From assembly GCA_964016885.1 (NCBI GenBank), contig OZ024755.1, positions 28,396,001 to 28,460,000 on the forward strand: DNA of 64,000 nucleotides, written 5' to 3'. Shown piece after piece: positions 1,100-55,950 of the stretch. Under the pieces are notes generated by a model. The model worked only from the letters and a program-made list of their open reading frames with translations. It was not told the DNA's origin and did not search any database. This DNA is from Eledone cirrhosa. Its lineage: Eukaryota. The first letter of the stretch is position 1. The number at the start of each line of letters is the position of its first letter. Made by a program: the position numbers and the translations under genes.

Positions 1100-1741
1100 T
1101 ATACAGTAATAACAAATGTGAAGTCTAAATTCCAAAGAGGGCTCGATAAGGATAAATATATATCAAATGTATAAGAACCATAGAGCAAATATTTATTAAA
1201 ATAACAGATTACAGAATTCCTGCTTTCACCCTTAACGGGATCTTCTGAAACCCCCCCAAAAATCAATCTGGGAATGCAGAAGTAAATATTTCGAAAAACA
1301 TTGCAACCGAAGGAAAACAAGAAGACGATTCTTCGGTGATTCTTCGGTTCGTGAAGACGTTCCCTGGCAATGGACGGAAAAAAGCGAAGATAATACGTCG
1401 TTATGTGGACCGATGAGAACAAATATACGCAATTTTAATAACCTCTGTCATTTTCGTTCAACTAATTTATTTCGGTGTCCTAAATAGAATATTAGTCTAA
1501 TGACTCTATTTATACCATAATTGTTTTTTTGTCTTTGCGTGTATTTGCTCTCATCGTTCCACATAACGACGTATCATCTTCGTTTTTTTCCGTCCATTTC
1601 CAGGGAATGTCTTCACTAACCAAAGGATCGTCTTCCTGTTTTCCTTCGGTTGCAACATCTTTTGAAATATTTACTTCTGCGTTCAAAGAATTGATTTTTT
1701 TTTAGAAAGCAGCGATTCTTTGCTTAAACTTTAATCTGTTA

Positions 1742-1750
<9 letters not shown>
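1100..1750. mobile_element. Fold-back insertion of hammerhead family D (long arm minus, short arm plus)
   Basis: About 1195-1410 is inverted at about 1555-1750. The minus arm has cagaaga-tcccgttaagggt-gaaag at 1222-1247. Homologous pieces lie at 20578-20712, 39738-39800, 42221-42290 and 49628-49730, all in or beside (TA)n. Confidence 0.7.
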
Positions 1751-1797
<47 letters not shown>

Positions 1798-4167: not shown

Positions 4168-4219
<52 letters not shown>

Positions 4220-4724
4220 GTAAAGTGTGTGCGCATTATAGGATCATGTCATCTATTTTCTTTGCTTATACTACACATAGGGCTACATTATCAACATGAA
4301 GTCTCATGTCACGACTCTTGTGAGAAGTTTTGTAGAATCAGCAACCCTACATTTCCTCAAGCATTTTTATTCAGATAATATTGAAACAGTTGATAGACTT
4401 TTGACATAACAGAAACTTCTGCTTCGGTATTGTTGTTTCTTTCTTTCCCTAATAATGTAATACAGGTAAATGTATGTGTGTGTGGTTGAGTATATATTTA
4501 TAGAATTTCTTTTTTTTCCTCTTGCGACGTTTTTAACAACTGTTGATGAATAATTGTCTCTACACATTTGAACATGTCGTTAACGATGCAATTAATATGG
4601 CAGAATCTAGCTTGCAAGTGCCATGCATTAGTTGCTGCATTACTTCTAGTCTAGTTTAATTTCTCTAAATATCAACCAGCTTCTTTCCCGGATATGAAGT
4701 AATTCGAGCTCTATCATATGAATT

Positions 4725-5475
4725 ATCCCTTTACGGTCTGAGTTCAAATCCCGTTGAGGTTAACTTTGCTTTTCATCCTTACGGGGTCGATAAAATAAAG
4801 TACCAGTAATGTACTGGGTAATTGTTGGCCTTGTGCCAAAAGTAGAAACAATTATTTTTGGATTGGCCGTAGTATCGGTAGAGGATCGGATGTCATGCTT
4901 TGATGCATAGAGTTACAGCCCGTTACGTTCTGAGTTCAAATCCGTCCGAGGTTAACTTTGCCTTTCATCCTTACGGGGTCAATAAAATAAAGTACCAGTA
5001 ATGCATTGGGGTCAATAAAATAAAGAACCAGTAATGCACTGTAATAATTGCTGGCCTGGTGCCGTAAATAGAAACAATTATTTTTGGATTGGCAGTATCG
5101 GGAGAGGGTCGGACGCCATGCTTTGCAGCATAGAGTTACGGCCACTTACGGTCTGAGTTCAAATCCCGCCGAGGTTAACTTTGCTTTTCATCCTTAAGGG
5201 ATCGATAAGATAAAGCCCCAGTAATGCACTGGGTAATTGCTGGCCTTGTGCCAAAAGTAGAAACAATTATTTTAAAGAATTATCATGGAGGCGGATTGGC
5301 AATACCATTAAAGTATCGAAGAATAGCCTTTGCGTCATATAGTTACGTACCTTTACGTTCTAAGATAAAATCTATTTTTTTCCGTTTAGCTTTGCCTTCC
5401 ATCCTTACGAGGTTGATAAAATAAAGTACCAGTCAAATACTGGGCCCAATATAATTGACGTTTCTCTCCCCACAC
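4725..5475 (+). mobile_element. Head-to-tail array of four Meta-domain tRNA-SINEs
   Basis: Repeated tggcagtatcggtag (A box), gagttcaaatccc (B box), gcctttcatccttacggggtcgataaaataaagtaccag (Meta-type domain) and tail ggccttgtgccaaaagtagaaacaatt. The last copy is older and longer. Confidence 0.85.
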
Positions 5476-5974
5476 ATGCTGGTCTTCTGCCTATGAATAA
5501 TTTCTAAGAGTTCTGTTAATTTAAAATGTGATTGATCGACTATCTATTGAAAGACATCCTAGCTAATACGAGATACTCAGCCTGGCTTCAGTTTCGTCTA
5601 GAAATAGCAACCAAATTTCCCTCAAATCACACCATTAAATTATTACGATGTAGCAGCAGATGTAATAAATACCATATTTAAATGTGTGCAAGAATTCTTT
5701 ATAAAAAGAATCACCATTCATTTTCCTTGATGCATTTTCCAATGATGCAGGCATTATTTTATTACGAAATTGAATTAATTTTCAAATTAATCATTTCTAC
5801 TGTTATATTTTCTCTTTTTTTCACGGCTATTATCGTCGTCCACAAACTGTTTCGAGTATTACACAAAAGAAATAAAAATTGCTTTCATATAATATGATTT
5901 CGCTTATTTGAAAACTATAAGAAAATATGAAAGCAGATAATTTTCGACTTGTCCATACGTTTTCATCTACAATA

Positions 5975-6960
5975 ATAGTTTCTACTTTTGGCACAAGGCC
6001 TGCAATTAATCCAGGACATTACTGGTGTGCTATTTTATTGACCCTGTAAGGATGAAAGGCAAAGTTAACCTTGGCGAGATTTCAACTCAGACCGTAAAGG
6101 GTCATAACTCTATGCTGCAAAGCATGGTGTCAGACGCTCTGCTCTACCGATACTGCCACTTCACCGCCCTAATACATAATAATTGTTTCTACTTTAGGCA
6201 CAAGACCAGTAATTATCCCAGTGCATTACTGGTACTTTATTTTATCGACCCCGTAAGGATGAAAGGCAAAGTCAACCTCGGCGGGATTTGAACTCAGATC
6301 GTAAAGGGACGTAACTATGCTGGAAAGCATGGCGTCCGACTCTCTACCGATACTGCCACTTCACCGCCCTAATACATAATAATAACAACATGTATATGAG
6401 TGTGAGTGAGTGAGTGAGTGAGTGTCAGTTTCTCTGTCGGTGATTGTCTCTGTGTGTGGTGGTGGTGGTGGTGGGGGGTGCAGTAATGCGGGAGAATATA
6501 CTATTTTCGAATCCTCCATAAAATAGAATACTAGTCAAGTACAGAAGTCGTGATAGTCTATTGCTGCAAAGCATGGCATCCGACGCTCTACCGATACTGC
6601 CAATCCACTTCCTTTCAATAATTGTTTCTACTTTTGGCACAAGGCCAGTAATTATCCCAGTACATTACTGGTACTTTATTTTATCGACCCCGTAAGGAGG
6701 ATGAAAGCTAAAGTTAACCATGGCAGGATTTGAACTCAGAAAGTAAACCGCCATAACTCTATGCTGCAAAGCATTGTTACTGACGCTCTACCGATACTGC
6801 CAATCCATCTACAATAATTGTTTCTACTTGTGACACAAGGCCAGTAATTATAATCAGTGCATTACTGGTACTTTATTTTATCGACCCTGTAAGGATGAAA
6901 GGCTAAGTTAACCTCGGCGGGATTTGAACTCAGAGTGTAAACGGCCGTAACTCTATGCTG
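5975..6960 (-). mobile_element. Cluster of 4-5 Meta-domain SINE copies
   Basis: Reverse-complement copies at about 5975-6170, 6180-6370, 6560-6606 (head only), 6619-6806 and 6815-6960. Confidence 0.85.
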
Positions 6961-7289
6961 TCGATTTTTTCATATATCTCGTTTGATTTTTCTGCCACAT
7001 TCTGAACGTAAAATCGTGTGTTTAAACAAATATGTTTTGTCCTATGGGAGAATCATTGCAACAATAAATTCATATGCAGTGTTGCTTTTCAATTCCGCCT
7101 TATTAGTCAAATAGAAAATCAATTTATTAATGAACTGATTAATTGGTTTTCAAATATCCTTTGTCATGGCTTCTGATGTGTTCGATTTGTATGTGCCCAT
7201 CGTTCAAATCCTCCTTAACAGCATTTAATTTATGTTCTTTGTTTGACAATCAGTATCCCATTGAGCAGTTTCTGAGAGACGAACAGTCA

Positions 7290-7405
7290 AGACTGTGGGG
7301 TTAAGGAATTGGTGTAGCTTCGGGTTTAGTCCTACATGTCGACTGTGGGGTTAAGGGATTGGTGAAGCAATAATGTAGCTTCGGATTTAGTCCTACATGT
7401 CGACG
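7290..7405. repeat. Local tandem duplication (about 50-60 bp, twice)
   Basis: gactgtggggttaagg(a/g)attggtg...tagcttcgg(g/a)tttagtcctacatgtc occurs twice. Confidence 0.8.
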
Positions 7406-7545
7406 TCTCATATTAAAGACTCGAGTTTACCAATGTTCGTGAGAGGAATTTGGTCCTGAAACACGCCATACAAACACACACAGACAAATATAGATAGATA
7501 GATAGATATTCATACATACATACATACATTTATGTTGACTCGCTG

Positions 7546-7592
7546 TCTTATCTGATGACCTTGTGAGTACACAGGTGAAACTTCTGAATAAC
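7546..7592 (+). ncRNA. Degenerate hammerhead motif
   Basis: CTGATGA (7552) - cc(t)tgtg agta cacagg-t - GAAAC; the cleavage triplet is not intact. Confidence 0.4.
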
Positions 7593-7674
7593 AATATATA
7601 TCCCGTACCGATATTATAGAATCATATCTATATCTATATCTATATATATCTATATATATCTATATATATCTATA

Positions 7675-7747
<73 letters not shown>

Positions 7748-8899
7748 AATTTTCAGTATAAATATATAACAAATTATTGAGGCAACAGATTATTAGTCGT
7801 TCGAAGTCTACTCAATCATGAACAATATTTAAAAGGCGTTCGGGTAATGACTCGCTAGGATACATAATATTTAAAGAGTAATATGATTCATGGAACATTG
7901 GCCTTGTAATGATGTTTAAAAAGAATCAACAACACTGAGCTTTGATTTTATTCACAATATAATGTACAGTACATTATTTGGATTTTCTTTTTACTGTCTG
8001 TTGGTTAAATAGTTAACCTAATTTGTCATTTTGACAGTTGTAAACAGAGGTAAAATTTAGTTCAATGTTGGTGCTACAATATATGTAATATTGAGCTAAT
8101 ATATTGACTAGAGAAATAATCTATCAGCGTTAAATAATGCTAGACCTGACGAACAAATCTGTGCTACACTGGCAGTGAACATATTATTTAACATCTAAAT
8201 GGAGTATAACTATTGTTTGCAAGGATAAGAAGGTAAGCAAATTCATTTGACACTACCTATATCTCAACGACATATACAACTGAAGGCTATACATGGTGCA
8301 GTGGTTGTTTATGAGACGCATCTTGTTGGCCTAACTTCCCGTTCCAGCGGCAATTTAATACGATTTTTACAGATATTTTGGGCAAAGTTTCATGCTGATA
8401 CTTGATAGTTATATTCATGCCTCTGAGATAACTAATAGTTATTAATATAGAAAATATGACTAAATAAACCACTGAAATGCCACGACTGAAACGCTATGTA
8501 TTTGGGTTTCACTTGGTGTTAACCAATAATTATGCCACAAAACTCAACCTAGAAACGAATTTGTAAATCTTACTACATACGGCGCAAGACGCTTGACTTC
8601 ATTCTATTTCACCTGCATGCGTGATCGATATAGATAATACAATTCTTTAAATCAATGTTAACTGTTATTGAAGCATATAAACAAACAAACAGCATTTACG
8701 TTGCTTTGAATGCTAAGAATCAATTAGTATGAAAAACATAACAACAAAGAAAATATAATGGTATAATTGTTTTTGAGAAAGTGAATACAACTTTTCAGAA
8801 ATATGAAAAGTGAGCTAATATATTTCGTTATCGAAGGTAATATATATTTTATTGATAATATTGATTTTTATTAATATTCGATTGCGTGACAACAAAATC

Positions 8900-16107: not shown

Positions 16108-16249
16108 ACATATATATATTTATATATATATATACATATATATATTTATATATATATATACATATATATATTTATATATATATATACATATATATATTTA
16201 TATATATATATATACATATATATATATTTATATATATATATCTATCTAT

Positions 16250-16844
16250 CTAAGGCGGGTAAAATTCCCGAGATCCATGGACGAGTTCTCTCCAGCGGTC
16301 TCTGTCCCTCATTATCGCTGCCATGTCCTGCATCTCCAACAGACCAGTGTCTGTCCTTAGGGCATCAACATATGTTAGCCTTGGTCTTCCTCTTCCAGTA
16401 TGTACATGCAGGGGCTCCCACAGGACCACTGAGTGCAGTGTCAACTCTGGATGTCGGTGAGCATGTCCAGCTAACTCCAGTCTCCTCTGTGCTACTCTCG
16501 AGCTGACGTTTGGGAGGCTCCCGTACAACTCTGAGGTCTTCATCCTCAGTTTATACTGATTAATGTTCAGAGCCATCCTCAGCATTCTCGTGTTGCACCC
16601 ATCCACCATCTGAGTGAGTTTCTTGGTCAGCGTCCAAGTCGCGGACCCGTACAACAGCACAGACTTCACTACAGCAACGAAGAGACGGATCTTCAGGTCT
16701 CACGAAGGTCCGACTTCCACACCGATTTCAAGCTGTGGCACGCCGACCAGGCTTTGTTCTTTCTCTCAACCATCTTCCGTATTCCCAATTTTTGCTCCCA
16801 AATCCAGGAAGTCCTCAACCAATTCTAGCGGCTTCCCGCTTACA
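16250..16844 (-). pseudogene. RTE-clade retrotransposon, 3' segment
   Basis: SVLLYGSATWTLTKK...RRLELAGH...[11 protein letters not shown]...[11 protein letters not shown]...FYPP*; closely similar to 51038-51619. Confidence 0.9.
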
Positions 16845-18000
16845 CTGAGGTCAGAGAGGAGGCACTGATAGAGAAGATCAGAAGTGTGGATAGAGCGGTT
16901 GACAGGTCTGGATATAAGGAGAACTGGATGATCATCAACGAGATCACAGGGAGGAAGAGAAGGTGTTCGAGTCAGATCCAGTGAACAAGGCCCGAGGATA
17001 GTAAGAGGAAATGGCTGGGCTATTTTAGGACCCTACTAGGAGAGCCGTATTCCACAGCCCAGAACACTGGAGAGATCAGGCGGCTGTTTGAGGAACTGGA
17101 TATTTAGAGAGGACCCTTCACCAGAGAGGAGCTTCAGAGAGCCAAGAAGAAGATCAAGGAGGCAAGGCTCATGTAGAAGATGGAGTGGCATCAATGGTGA
17201 TGAAGAGGTGTGATTTTGATGATATCATCCTCGGGTTCTGTAACCAGGCACTGGAGAAAGGAGTTGCCCCGAATCAGTGGAGGATCAGTAACATCGTCCC
17301 AGTGCCAAAGAAGGGAGATCTCTCTAACACAAAAAACTACAGGGGGATCTCACTGACGTCACTTGTGGCAAAGACCTTCAACAGGATGATTCTTAACAGG
17401 ATCCAGCCTGAGATGGATAAGAAGCTCAGGGAAAACCAGGACGGCTTCAGAGAGGGAAGATCAACCACCAGTCACATCCTGATGCTGAGGAGGATATTAG
17501 AGGGAGCTAGAGCAAAGTGCCTTCCTGCGGTCATGGTTTTCATTGACTTTAGGAAGGCCTTTGATTCTGTGGACTGTCACTGCCTGAATAAGATCTTACA
17601 GGCTTATGGAATCCCCAAGAAGATAGTGGACCTGATATAACTGCTCTACACCAACACTGATGGGATGACAGAGTTCTTTGAGATACTGGCTGGAGTGCTC
17701 CAGGGAGGTACATTGGCTCCCTACTTTTTTATCGTCGCATTGGACTATTGTATGCGCCTTGCACTGGAGAAACACCAGGACTCTGGCTTTACTGTAACAC
17801 CGGCTCAGAGTAGGAGAGTTAAGGCGAAAAAAATATCGGATGCTGAATTTGCCGACGACATAATTCTGGTGACAAAGACAGTGAAGGAGACAGAGGGGTT
17901 GATGCAGGAGGTGGAGACCGTGTCGATTGAGTGTGGGGCTGAGAATGAATGAGATTAAGACGAAGTATCTGGTAGAGAATATTAAGAAGCCAGAGGAGAT
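16845..18000 (+). pseudogene. RTE-clade reverse transcriptase, inverted 5' segment of the same insertion
   Basis: YRGISLTS, NQDGFREGRST, FIDFRKAFDSV, GVLQGGTLAPYFF and FADD motifs, with stops and frameshifts. Confidence 0.9.
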
Positions 18001-19036: not shown

Positions 19037-19500
19037 ATTAAAATACTGGAGCGTGTTGGAGTTAAACACCCTCTTCGTATTATAGAAATGACAGTAAAAG
19101 GTATAGCTCAATGTAGTTAAACATAGCCAAAAAATTAAGAGAGTAAAACAAAGAAGCCTTTAATACATCAAACATAGCCAAAAAATTAAGAGAGTAAAAC
19201 AAAGAAGCCTTTAATACATCAAAAGTTTTTATTAGCCGACAATGTTTCGTCCTATTATGGACTCATCAGAGCAATTAAAACAACAAGAAGTAATATCGGC
19301 AGATACAAGCCGGAAGCTCCGAAGAATATGGAGTGTAAAGTCTTGCAAAAATATATAATAAAAATAATGAAAAAAAAAATATAATAAGAATAACTAAGGA
19401 TGTAGATAACATTAAGAACCATATTACAAATATAGTCCAAAGCAAATAACCTAAAGCTAAACAAAGGTGGTTATATAGAGCAGGAATTATATATAACACA
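19033..19500 (-). mobile_element. PLE-type terminal fragment in (TA)n
   Basis: Contains the hammerhead at 19226-19280 followed by AATAAA, and a 51-bp tandem duplication at 19119-19221. Confidence 0.6.
19226..19280 (-). ncRNA. Type I hammerhead ribozyme
   Basis: ttgct-CTGATGA-gtcc ataata ggac-GAAAC-att-GTC-ggc: canonical core, 4-bp stem II, minimal stem III. Confidence 0.8.
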
Positions 19501-19724: not shown

Positions 19725-19754
19725 TGAGCTGATGAATAGCGAAACGCGCCTCAC
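19725..19754 (+). ncRNA. Minimal hammerhead, decayed
   Basis: tgag-CTGATGA-atagc-GAAAC-gc-g(-)c-ctca, then AATAAA. The U of GUC appears to be deleted. Confidence 0.5.
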
Positions 19755-20560: not shown

Positions 20561-20577
20561 CATATGTATATATATAT

Positions 20578-20712
20578 GTATTAAAATAACATATTAAAGG
20601 TTAAGCAAAGAATCGCTGCTTTCACCCTTAACGGGATCTTCTGAAACTCTACGGTTCTTATATATCTGATATATATTTATTCTTATCGAGCCCTCTTTGG
20701 ATTTTAGTCTAT
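20578..20712. mobile_element. Family D fold-back insert with variant hammerhead (minus, 20598-20648)
   Basis: The short arm carries the ribozyme; the long arm 20646-20712 is homologous to the reverse complement of 1120-1185. Confidence 0.7.
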
Positions 20713-23320: not shown

Positions 23321-23466
23321 AAATTGCTTCTACAGGACTAGAACTGTTTCATTCGGGAGAATGAAAGAGTTCTAGTCCTGTAGAAGCCATTTCTATATTA
23401 AATATTTATACTCTATGTATTGAGTACCTTACTTACTGTGTTTAACCATGATTGAACACGGGATAA

Positions 23467-23589: not shown

Positions 23590-23630
23590 GGAACGACGTT
23601 TCGGCCATAAGCCCTTCTTCAGGTGAAAAG
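23590..23630 (-). ncRNA. Hammerhead core in a PLE-type end (23503-23720)
   Basis: CTGAAGA-agggc ttatg gcc-GAAAC-GTC; stem I is poor. Confidence 0.6.
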
Positions 23631-27937: not shown

Positions 27938-28154
27938 AAGTAAAAGTTAAGTTGAAATATCCAAGAGTAAGAGCACTCATTCCATAGGACGAGTTTAGTA
28001 TAAATAATTAGAATAGTGGCATAGACAGGTACTAAAGTTTCGTTGGGTCCTGGGCCCCAATTTCTTCAGCCTGTCCTTCATTTTTCCCATGACAGGCTTT
28101 AAAAATTGGGGCCCAGAAACCAACAAAGCTGAGTACCTGTCTATGCCACTGTTG

Positions 28155-39489: not shown

Positions 39490-39800
39490 TAACGACGGAA
39501 GTGTGGGAAGTAACCAGGTGGACCATAACGCACCAAAGTACTCAATACTGGGTAGTAGATACTGTCGAATCTCAGGGTAGTAGATACTGACGGAGCTCAG
39601 CCGTCGGGGTCCTGACTCTTTTCCTATATATATATATATATATATATAGATATGTGTGTGTGTGAATATAAATATACACACACCCCACCGCAGGCACAAA
39701 CACGCACACACATATATATATATAGTAATAATAATAAATTTGAAGATCCCGTTAAGGGTGAAAGCAGCGATTCTTTGCTTAAACTTTAATCTGTTATTTT
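39490..39800. mobile_element. Family A fold-back (39490-39626) and family D stub (39738-39800)
   Basis: Motif matches to the other copies; both are bounded by (TA)n. Confidence 0.7.
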
Positions 39801-39813
39801 TATAAATAAATAA

Positions 39814-41519: not shown

Positions 41520-41807
41520 TATATGCATATATTATATATGTATATATGTATAGATAAAGAAAGATAGGAGACAAAGAAAATGCTAGACATAGCAGATGAT
41601 ACAGGTGAAACGCATAACACAATGAGGAAGTAAAAAAAAAAAATCTAATAGCATAAAGATAAGAAATCAAATTTTAACATAAAATTGACATGAATGAATT
41701 GATAGAAATAGTATATTTTTACAAGAAAACATACACAAGCACACACATATATACACACTGGTGCGCGTGCGTGAGAACATTTACACACACACACACACAC
41801 AAACACA

Positions 41808-42216: not shown

Positions 42217-42287
42217 AGTTAGTTTCAGAAGATCCCGTTAAGGGTGAAAGCAGCGATTCTTTGCTTAAACTTTAACCTGTTATTTTA

Positions 42288-42339
<52 letters not shown>

Positions 42340-42743: not shown

Positions 42744-42760
42744 ATATATATATATATATA

Positions 42761-42940
42761 GATGAGATTCTACAGGACTAGAACTATTTCATTCTTTAGA
42801 AATCTTCAGGAATCCTGATGATTTCTAAAGAATGAAACAGTTCTAGTCCTGTAGAATCTCATATATATTAAAACTTTTATACTCTGCTATGTATTGAGTA
42901 CCTTACTTACTGTGGTTACCTCCGATTCAACCCGGAATAA
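42761..42940. mobile_element. Family B fold-back with back-to-back hammerheads (minus 42766-42814, plus 42810-42858)
   Basis: gattc-CTGAAGA-tttctaaagaat-GAA-atag ttctagtc ctgt-A-gaatc on minus; CTGATGA version on plus. Confidence 0.8.
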
Positions 42941-49627: not shown

Positions 49628-49925
49628 TATTAAAACAACCGATTAAAGTTTAAGCAAAAAATCGCTGCTTTCACCCTTAACAGGGTGTTCTGAAACTAAA
49701 AAAATCAATCTGTGACCGCAGAAGTAAATATATATATATATATATATATATATAAGATAAGTTATTCCGGGTTGAATCGGAGGTGACCACGGTAAGTAAG
49801 TTACTCAATACATAGCAGAGTGTAAAAGTTTTAATATAGAAGAGCTTCTACAGGTCTAGAACTGTTTCATTCGTGAGAAATCCTCAGAGAGCTACCTGTA
49901 GAAGCTCTTCTATATTAAGACTAAT
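49158..49925. mobile_element. Four consecutive hammerhead-family inserts: A (49158-49350), A-variant (49362-49535), D (49628-49730), B (49753-49925)
   Basis: Fold-back hairpins separated by (TA)n. The B copy has CTGAGGA-tttctcacgaat-GAAACAG..CTGTA on minus (49843-49893). Confidence 0.8.
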
Positions 49926-49978: not shown

Positions 49979-49988
49979 TAGATATATA

Positions 49989-51619
49989 CAGGGAGGAAGA
50001 GAAGGTTTTCGAGTCAGGGCCCGAGGATAGGAAGAGGATATGGCTAGATCATTTTAGGACCCTACTAGGAGAGACGCCCTCCACAGACCGAAGCGCTGGG
50101 GAGATCAGGCGGCTGTTTGAAGAACTGGATATTGAGATAGAGCCCTTCACCAGAGTGGAGCTTCAGAGACCCCAGAAGAAGATCAAGGAGGGCATGGCCC
50201 ATGGAGAATATGGAGTGGCATCAGAGGTGATGAAGAGGTGTGATTTTGATGATATCATCCTGGGGTTCTATAACCAGGCACTGGAGAAAGGAGTTGTGGA
50301 GGATCAGTAACATCGTACCAGTGCCAAAGAAGGGAGATGACTCTAACACCAAAAACCTACAGGGGGATCTCACTGACGTCACTTGTGGGAAAGACCCTCA
50401 ACAGGATGATTCTTAACAGGATCCAGCCTGAGATGGAGAAGAGGCTCAGGGACAACCAGAACGGCTTCAGAGAAGGAAGATCAACCACCAGTCACATCCT
50501 GATGCTGAGGAGGATATTAGAAGCTAAGTGCCTTCCTGCGGTCATGGTTTTCATTGACTTTAGGAAGGCTTTTGATTCTGTGGACCGTCATTGCCTGATG
50601 AAGATCTTACAGGCTTATGGAACCCCCAAGAAGATAGTGGACCTGATATCGCTGCTCTACACCAACACCAAAGCCCAAGTTATTACACCTGATGGTATGA
50701 CAGATTTCTTTGAGATACTGGCTGGAGTGTTCCAGGGAGATACATTGGCTCCCTACCTTTTTATCATCGTAGTGGACTATTGTATGCGCCATGCACTGGA
50801 GAAACACCAGGACTCTGGCTTTACTGTAGCACTGGGTCAGAGTAGGAGAGTTAAGGCGAAAAAGATATCGGATGCTGAATTTGCCGACGACATAGTTTTG
50901 GTGACAAATACAGTGAAGGAGGCAGAGGATTTGATGCGGGAGGTTGAGACTGTGTCGATGAGTCTGGGGCTGAGAATGAATGAGACTAAAAGAAAATATC
51001 TGGTAGAGAATGTTGAGAAGCCAGAGGGGATCTCTAATGTAGGCGGGAAGCCACTAGAATTGGTTGAAGACTTCCTGTATTTGGGAGCAAAGATTGGGAA
51101 TACGGAAGTGATGTGGTTGAGAGGAAGAGCAAAGCCTTGAGAACGGTGCGGAAGTCGGACCTTCGTGAAGTACTGAAAATCCGCCTCTTCGTTGCTGTAG
51201 TGGAGTCTGTGCTGCTGTACAGGTCTGAGACTTGGACACTGACCAGGAAACTCACTCATATGGTGGATGGGTGGTACACGAGAATGCTGAGGTTGGCTCT
51301 GAACATTAATCAGTATACACTTAGGATGAATAACTCAGAGCTGTATGGGAGCCTCCCAAAAGTCAGCTCAAAAGTGACACAGAGGAGACTGCGGTTAGCT
51401 GGACATGTTCATCGACATCCAGAGTTGACATTGCACTCAGTGCTCCTGTGGGAGCCCCAACATAGACACACTGGAAGAGGAAGACCAAGGTTAACGTATG
51501 TTGATGCCTTAAGGACAGACACTGGTCTGTTGGAGACGCAGGACATGGCAGCGATAATGGGGGACAGAGACCGCTGGAGAGAACTCGTCCATGGATCTCG
51601 AGTATTTTACCCGCCTTAG
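49989..51619 (+). pseudogene. 5'-truncated RTE-clade retrotransposon (reverse transcriptase, frameshifted)
   Basis: RT motifs YRGISLTS, FIDFRKAFDSV, GVFQGDTLAPYLF, FADD and FLYLG; C-terminus ...[13 protein letters not shown]. Confidence 0.92.
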
Positions 51620-51641
51620 AAGAATACATACACACACACAC

Positions 51642-55511: not shown

Positions 55512-55900
55512 GTGAGGTTTTTTTTACAAAATGAAAAATAACCGAGGTGTCCTACACGAGTGAAAGTATAAAGAAAAAGAGATGAAATCGAAAATGCAAC
55601 TGGAGTCTTTTTTTTTTTTTTTTTAAATATATAAATTTATTTGGTTCCTTTACCGGTTTCTCAGTTCTTCTGCTTTTCAAAAGTAGAGTTGAGATGGAGG
55701 GTCTGTGGTTTTTCTCACATCTCCAGATGTGAGAGACATACATCTCCAGATGTGAGAAAAACCACAGACCCTCCATCTCAACTCTACTTTTGAAAAGCAG
55801 AAGAACTGCCAAACCGGTAAAGGAACCAAATAAATATATATATTTAAAAAAAAAAAAAATAAGACTCCAGTTGCATTTTCGATTTCATCTCTTTTTCTAT
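55505..55900. mobile_element. Near-perfect 150-bp fold-back insert in (TA)n
   Basis: 55572-55722 is inverted at 55748-55897. The minus arm has cagaaga-actga-gaaac-cg-gta. An older relative lies at 54135-54265. Confidence 0.7.
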
Positions 55901-55904
55901 ATAC

Positions 55905-55950
<46 letters not shown>

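Follow-up and report, generated by a model that had tools for sequence, protein, structure and literature searches.

A hammerhead motif with A in place of core uridine U4, a candidate slow ribozyme, in a high-copy Penelope-like retroelement of Eledone cirrhosa

The hammerhead motif at positions 42221-42271(+) of the window (the whole 64-kb stretch of Eledone cirrhosa DNA that we analysed) carries A at core position 4, and A4 is the state of the young source lineage and the genome-wide consensus of the family to which this copy belongs. Judged by motifs and architecture, the parent is a member of the Hydra clade of Penelope-like elements (PLEs). Reading the motif as a slow but still selected self-cleaving ribozyme of this young, high-copy retroelement is the explanation that we prefer, with a probability of about 0.5.

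A descriptor with a relaxed core folds 42221-42271(+) as a type I hammerhead, in which three helices (stem I, 5 bp; stem II, 3 bp; stem III, 4 bp) surround the core and the structure opens at stem I, an arrangement that is the same across subfamilies. In this fold, the 5' strand of stem I (AGTTT, 42221-42225) is followed by the core C3-A4-G5-A6-A7-G8-A9 (CAGAAGA, 42226-42232), with A4 at 42227 in place of the canonical U4. The segment 42233-42245 contains U10.1 (42233), stem II (CCC/GGG) with loop II GTTAA, and U11.1 (42245), giving a U-U closing, and leads to G12-A13-A14-A15.1 (GAAA, 42246-42249). Stem III (AGCA/TGCT, 42249-42265) encloses the 9-nt loop GCGATTCTT, and its G15.2-C16.2 pair is swapped with respect to related hammerheads. 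The CUU triplet lies at 42264-42266, with the cut predicted after 42266 from the hammerhead numbering, and AAACT (42267-42271) forms the 3' strand of stem I. Positions 42272-42280 would prolong stem I distally as its 3' strand; the matching 5' partner (ACAGAT...) is found in longer copies and is absent here because of truncation. Both the letters and the descriptor fold thus agree with the earlier note, which had described three stems, CAGAAGA, U-U and CUU at this place. Compared with the core C3 U4 G5 A6 N7 G8 A9, in which U4 is regarded as essentially invariant and N7 is the sole free position, the motif departs at position 4 and agrees at the remaining positions, with N7 variable. G12, A13 and A14, the A15.1-U16.1 pair and H17 are all present, but the R10.1-Y11.1 pair is replaced by U-U. 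Rfam models at gathering thresholds gave no match in the 64-kb window, where they also missed motifs with canonical cores, and the output of a generic repeat finder was dominated by microsatellites.

The proposal of the earlier note that the source element itself carried the variant was supported, as the consensus from many copies is CAGAAGA and not CTGAAGA, the outcome that the note had named as refuting it. In the 3.0-Gb genome, an exact 30-mer with A4 occurs 18,366 times (reversed-pattern control, 0), and the same 30-mer with C, G or T at position 4 occurs 181 times together, in a mixed set; looser, matched patterns gave 26,846 CAGA and 931 CTGA sites. When 30 loci were chosen by protein similarity, CAGAAGA was present in 36 of 39 motif anchors, and the other three were junctions in two cases and, in one, a copy bearing small deletions. 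We read 30 CTGA loci, of which 28 are inversion junctions with position 4 at their centre and 2 are in-line point changes. These junctions read CAGA on one strand and CTGA on the other because the arms are joined at the near-self-complementary TTC-A-GAA, and an ancestral CTGA subfamily was ruled out since 28 of the 30 are two-armed insertions of this kind. A search for a U4 sister family with the nearest protein relative (57% identity) returned only the CAGA family itself, and no variant at position 4 appeared among the rows listed for contigs of four sequencing runs (threshold 3%, or 1% for two of them). In one sequencing run the depth rises at the motif, a signal that is unreadable as an RNA start.

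Several hundred two-armed insertions in the genome are joined exactly at core position 4 (for example L097, L098, L100 and L113). Such junctions recreate a canonical CTGAAGA on one strand, without a stem I partner, and are a marker of cDNA arm joining.

In the window, the motif is contained in a 78-nt, 5'-truncated copy of the 3' end of the element (42218-42295, +), inserted into (TA)n and terminating at the first of the two fixed 3' ends of the family. The earlier note had also reported the variant core, with all stems paired, at 1241(-), 20637(-) and, as CAGAACA, at 49687(-). The cores are there, but the minus-strand copies are damaged. A more diverged copy at 1107-1432(-), one arm of a two-armed insertion whose partner arm lies at 1483-1754(+), has CAGAAGA at 1247-1241 and lacks the 3' strands of both stem III and stem I; its cut site is deleted. 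The two-armed insertion at 20574-20710 consists of the arm 20648-20574(-), with CAGAAGA at 20643-20637 and one mismatch in stem I, and an inverted tail arm at 20647-20710(+). The copy at 49628-49731(-) has CAGAACA at 49692-49686, with private changes at G8 and 10.1. In another two-armed insertion (39722-39808), the plus-strand arm begins at G5, and C3 and A4 are lost.

By extending long copies we obtained a near-complete element, at locus L061. It contains a pLTR (4209-5165) with a tail to 5254, an ORF (5284-7422, with one stop), a second pLTR (7467-8421) and an inverted tail arm. The two pLTRs are 99% identical, the hammerhead motif sits near the 3' end of each, and in the two-LTR copy the predicted cut of the upstream motif lies 159 nt before the position of the ORF start codon. 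As read from the translation, the single ORF has a reverse transcriptase together with a GIY-YIG-type endonuclease at its C terminus, in an element with pLTRs, inverted arms and a tail. Open frames of 713 codons for the RT-endonuclease were found in 3 of 30 protein-selected loci, copies with open frames carry A4, and the best 150 endonuclease matches are 97-100% identical. A Pfam search with two pieces of the L061 ORF and a PDB search with the ORF gave no matches. The translations contain RWR, SDKT, CNCRNRADC, CDLC and CKH, and the marks of the Hydra clade given by Craig et al. 2021 (PMC8557442) include an RWK-like motif, DKT for DKG, a CxCX5C linker, and CxxC and CxH in the endonuclease. Copies of the family sit in (TA)n, and insertion there is likewise a feature of this clade. 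Hydra-clade elements are generally shorter than 3 kb and this one reaches ~3.2 kb, owing to its 1-kb 3' region. The family has fixed 3' ends at two sites 89 nt apart, used by 41 and 77 of 153 arms, and both lie downstream of the predicted cut, by 29 and 118 nt.

Two other identities were considered for the family and set aside. A non-LTR retrozyme, built from tandem non-coding units that are each a few hundred bases long, does not fit copies that are truncated ends of a coding element, arranged in inverted pairs and not in tandem arrays; and identity with Hydra-1_Obim was ruled out by the hammerhead listed for it, which differs. At locus L023, a stretch downstream of the motif resembles, as we take it, a copy of U2 snRNA.

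In order to place these letters among those of relatives, we used as outgroup 78 related metagenome elements (37-46% protein identity), scanned with the descriptor leaving position 4 free. A hammerhead was found in 61 of the 78, and in the other 17 the same descriptor found none in the contig. The 57 distinct motifs have U4 in 56 cases, C4 in one and A4 in none, their triplets are GUH in 56 and AUA in one, with no CUH, and none has the swapped G15.2-C16.2 pair. As judged from this comparison, A4 and the swapped pair are derived and family-specific, and CUU is family-specific. The U-U closing, which the earlier note had regarded as an oddity, turned out to be ordinary for the Hydra clade, since it occurs in 30 of the 57 outgroup motifs and, by our own count in File S2 of Craig et al. 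2021 (PMC8557442), in 14 of 25 Hydra families, all 25 of which have CUGA and GUH; a natural U10.1-U11.1 mismatch is also on record (Perreault et al. 2011, PMC3088659). A loose A4 pattern gave 120 stretches in viral contigs, none of which folds as an A4 hammerhead. One metagenome contig (L503) has a repeated hammerhead with a swapped G3-C8 core (GTGATCA) at 285 and 2788, on the strand opposite to a Hydra-like ORF.

The family also includes older subfamilies, whose copies are 7-10% diverged from their own consensus, against 1.3% for the young ones. With position 4 left free, older copies had A in 79 of 93 cases, T in 7, G in 5 and C in 2 (hand tally), and the three T4 copies that were read among the 7 older-pattern ones were all junctions. 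With positions 4-9 free, a hand tally of the first 100 of the 247 matches gave A4 in 95, T4 in none and T at N7 in 21, and a scripted count of the first 30 gave 28, 0 and 6; copies picked by an anchor outside the motif had A4 in 17 of 18. Compared with the young consensus, the three older consensuses differ by 18.5-26% in the flanks and at 0 of 17 structural positions, counting only those not fixed by the search pattern, in subfamilies whose grouping needed a recognisable motif (Fisher p 0.008-0.035 per subfamily, in three tests that share history and are not independent). The subfamilies agree at the core positions other than N7, A4 among them, and in the stems, and the changes fall on N7 and the loops: loop II varies in sequence and length (GTAATA, GTATA, GCTTA and GCTTTA in older subfamilies), and loop III reads GAAATTCTT or GAAATTGTT. 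Since the structure is kept while only N7 and the loops change, these alignments point to a fold maintained by selection. The kept set is the catalytic set with N7 free, which argues, as we infer, for residual catalysis or at least for the full tertiary fold; conservation of the fold fits a role in protein binding and catalysis equally well.

In longer copies, ACAGAT and ATCTGT can pair into a distal stem I helix that lies behind a U-rich bulge. One pair of this helix changes from T-A to C-G between older subfamilies, with small numbers of copies (4/7, 3/6 and 4/4); at this covarying pair, young copies have T opposite T in 22 of 22 cases, a mismatch. In 62 of 67 older copies the first letter of loop II is a purine, and in 65 of 67 its last letter is A, in agreement with the loop 2 features described by Dufour et al. 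2009, namely a key A at the 3' side of the loop and an R:A opposition. The distal helix, the U-rich bulge and the R...A loop II are kept, and are candidate elements for a tertiary contact between loops I and II.

Thermodynamic folding with ViennaRNA places the hammerhead secondary structure at -4.8 kcal/mol, 4 kcal/mol above the minimum of -8.8, in a model that leaves tertiary contacts outside; stem I pair probabilities are below 0.1, and the fold does not exceed shuffled sequences in stability. The program favours the pairing of UUUCA with UGAAA, a competing hairpin in which A4 and U11.1 take part and whose pair probabilities are 0.3-0.7 with A4, compared with 0.03-0.06 in a natural T4 copy; this hairpin was not favoured in the one older copy that was folded.

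Copying of cut linear RNA would yield arms that begin at the cut. The predicted cut coincides with just 2 of 152 arm 5' ends, and genome-wide 95 copies start there, compared with 63 that start three bases upstream of it and 69 that start three bases downstream, so that the 5' ends of copies do not pile up at the predicted cut. This is weak evidence, because the anole element, which cuts with protein, also lacks read ends at its cut.

Arm 5' ends do cluster at the 5' edge of the motif, with 22 of 152 within 14 bases (equivalent to 5085-5098 of L061); this cluster could be due to microhomology, to an RNA start or to a structural stop. Another peak of 5' ends, at 4967-4975, reflects a private deletion of the reference copy and was disregarded.

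The earlier note had proposed either an active non-canonical ribozyme or a tuned-down one, and the comparison across copies and relatives favours one that is selected and probably slow. In our preferred reading, reverse transcription would start just 3' of the cut, and fast cleavage would sever the start sites from the template. As a fast cut without re-ligation would separate the 3' ends from the body of the element, a weak ribozyme may be tolerated or even favoured. Cleavage would be slowed by U4A, the CUU triplet, the 3-bp stem II and the A4-favoured hairpin UUUCA/UGAAA, and residual activity would be sustained by tertiary contacts through the distal stem I helix, the U-rich bulge and the R...A loop II, perhaps with help from the element's own protein. 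A minority of transcripts would then be cut, for release of the mRNA from read-through RNA or for circularisation, and uncut or re-ligated RNA would serve as template. Slow or conditional cleavage has precedents. Metazoan PLE hammerheads are described as slow in vitro (Cervera and de la Pena 2014, PMC4209133), a natural U4C variant in a viroid is slow in vitro and supports infectivity (Perreault et al. 2011, PMC3088659), and in the anole PLE the hammerhead needs protein in order to cut and can be dispensed with when insertion is assayed in vitro (Frangieh et al. 2024, PMC11167929). Against this reading stand the lack of enrichment of copy 5' ends at the predicted cut, the ViennaRNA result and the T-T mismatch in the distal helix of young copies, and also the comprehensive mutagenesis reported by Roberts et al. 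2023, in which, in the portion consulted, all single mutants of the CUGA turn are low in activity.

The main rival, which we regard as a serious contender although on balance improbable, is that the fold does not cut and has a structural role, being bound by the RT-endonuclease or positioning the two downstream starts of reverse transcription. That U4A strikes the uridine turn, that ends are not piled up at the cut and that both fixed 3' ends lie no more than 118 nt from it are all in its favour. So is the insertion of the anole PLE in vitro, which needs no hammerhead cleavage (PMC11167929), and so are the Naiads, which reach very high copy number without canonical hammerheads (Craig et al. 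2021, PMC8557442, in the part consulted). The pattern of conservation speaks against it, as the kept positions are those of the catalytic set (G5, A6, G8, A9, G12, A13, A14 and U16.1, with N7 free) and H17 is still a cleavable base, while binding alone need not preserve the whole set.

We also consider, tentatively and with no greater expectation, that the motif could be an active hammerhead that dispenses with the U-turn uridine, in which A4, the swapped 15.2-16.2 pair and the loop-bulge contacts would form a working alternative core, tuned or switched. The switch might be the A4-U11.1 hairpin, splicing at the in-core CAG or the element's protein, and one RNA would then provide both the uncut template and the processed message. 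If this were true, searches based on CUGA would overlook entire hammerhead families. A stronger claim, that the motif is a fully active non-canonical hammerhead in which the swapped pair and tertiary contacts offset U4A, seems to us unlikely. It would account for the coincidence of two clade-unique changes, A4 and G15.2-C16.2, either of which is seen in 0 of 57 outgroup motifs, for the conserved distal helix and R...A loop II, and for the 181 position-4 point variants having founded no subfamily in the copies read. However, swaps of C3-G8 are the only second-site rescue inside the CUGA turn in the pairwise mutagenesis of another hammerhead (Roberts et al. 2023, in the portion consulted), and cut ends are not enriched.

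Quite improbable, though compatible with the slow-ribozyme reading, is that A4 is kept for an overlapping signal, either a TTTCAG splice acceptor (C3-A4-G5) or an off-switch formed by UUUCA/UGAAA. A pyrimidine tract and AG precede stem I in all subfamilies, the 5' end of helix I is where an intron of the D. virilis Penelope terminates (Cervera 2014, PMC4209133), and the pairing of the competing hairpin with A4 but hardly with T4, together with the cluster of arm 5' ends at the motif's 5' edge, also speaks for such signals. Against splicing, we found no spliced retrocopy for two upstream donor candidates (5 genome-wide pattern matches, with the flanks of 3) nor among 111 non-native upstream contexts, a test that is weak because Penelope copies usually retain introns; against the off-switch, the hairpin is not favoured in the older copy folded. 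In the 3' region of L068, strong splice-donor-like sites occur in the pLTR at +84, +116 and +445 past the stop codon. These donor-like sites and the pyrimidine tract and AG before stem I make a 5' UTR intron of Penelope type possible in the element. Last, the idea of a decaying relic, inactivated by U4A in one source copy that chanced to amplify, appeals to the fact that a single burst can fix any change and to the mere 1.3% divergence of the young subfamily, and it is largely refuted, being now very improbable: A4 and the stems persist in three or more older subfamilies, whose copies lie 7-10% away from the respective consensus, over a span in which the flanks came to differ by 19-26% and loop II took on other sequences and lengths.

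Hammerheads in Penelope elements, Hydra elements, the U-U closing, U3-A8 cores and U4C are already published. With the Hydra-clade hammerheads of Craig et al. 2021 (PMC8557442), the present family shares the 3' position, type I, a short stem II often with U-U, (TA)n targets and the protein motifs; it differs by CAGA and CUU, where the 25 Hydra families, found with a descriptor that favours CUGA, all have CUGA and GUH, and by its 9-nt loop III and distal stem I helix. The minimal PLE hammerheads of Cervera and de la Pena 2014 (PMC4209133) have in common with it the location in pLTRs, a U-rich 5' flank, many truncated and inverted copies and an expected low activity. They have a short palindrome (also in the U3-A8 variant) where the present motif has a real 4-bp stem III, and, unlike their U3-A8 variant, the present change is at position 4 and has no compensating core partner. 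Among the natural core variants of Perreault et al. 2011 (PMC3088659), a change at position 4 is tolerable in vivo and U-U closing is known, but U4A, from pyrimidine to purine, is not named in the part consulted; in the present family, ~27,000 copies have it as their consensus state, and it has lasted from one subfamily to the next. The PAc (Poseidon) element of the green anole (Frangieh et al. 2024, PMC11167929) likewise has two downstream starts of reverse transcription that define a tail, and neither element gives a sign of ends at the cut; PAc has a canonical core, a tail of 30-40 bp (89 bp here) and a hammerhead that overlaps the ORF start, whereas the present one lies 159 nt upstream. 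We found no natural U4A hammerhead in the literature searched; an earlier report or rate may exist in older papers, figures or repeat databases, which were outside the search. The published hammerhead searches that we consulted require CUGA and would leave this ~27,000-copy family invisible. The function of hammerheads in PLEs has been called unclear (Craig et al. 2021, PMC8557442), and a lineage in which one core letter changed while the remainder of the fold lasted over several subfamilies constitutes a natural experiment.

The window also contains other hammerhead-like sites. The loose CAGANGA..GAAAC pattern has 3 matches in it, compared with 0.6 expected, and two sites at which the earlier note had listed this pattern, with poor stem I, proved unrelated to the variant. 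At 41594(+), descriptor scans found no hammerhead fold and 1.1 Mb of DNA contained no relative, as expected of a chance match; and at 55650(-), CAGAAGA is formed by stem II and loop II of another hammerhead family, with a TTGAAAA core (U3-A8). This U3-A8 family is abundant, and its member at 55680-55650(-) has stem II GCAG/CTGC, a palindromic CCGG and a GUA triplet, with a second copy near 55758-55913. A further family, called family B in the earlier note (42809-/42815+/49887-), does have the U-U closing attributed to it, beside a normal CTGA core. It is found at 42760-42862, 49758-49918 and 23326-23466, with canonical CTGA, U-U and a long stem III, in inverted pairs joined within the core, and is probably another Hydra-type family. 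At least five more hammerhead-like motifs with CTGA cores, from other repeat families, lie in the same 64 kb, with sites at 2327(-), 19244-19269(-), 23598-23622(-), 28037-28069(-), 19729-19745(+) and 7552-7581(+). Finally, 16249-18000 and 49988-51620 are two decayed copies of a non-LTR retrotransposon, ~87% alike, with reverse-transcriptase-like frames.
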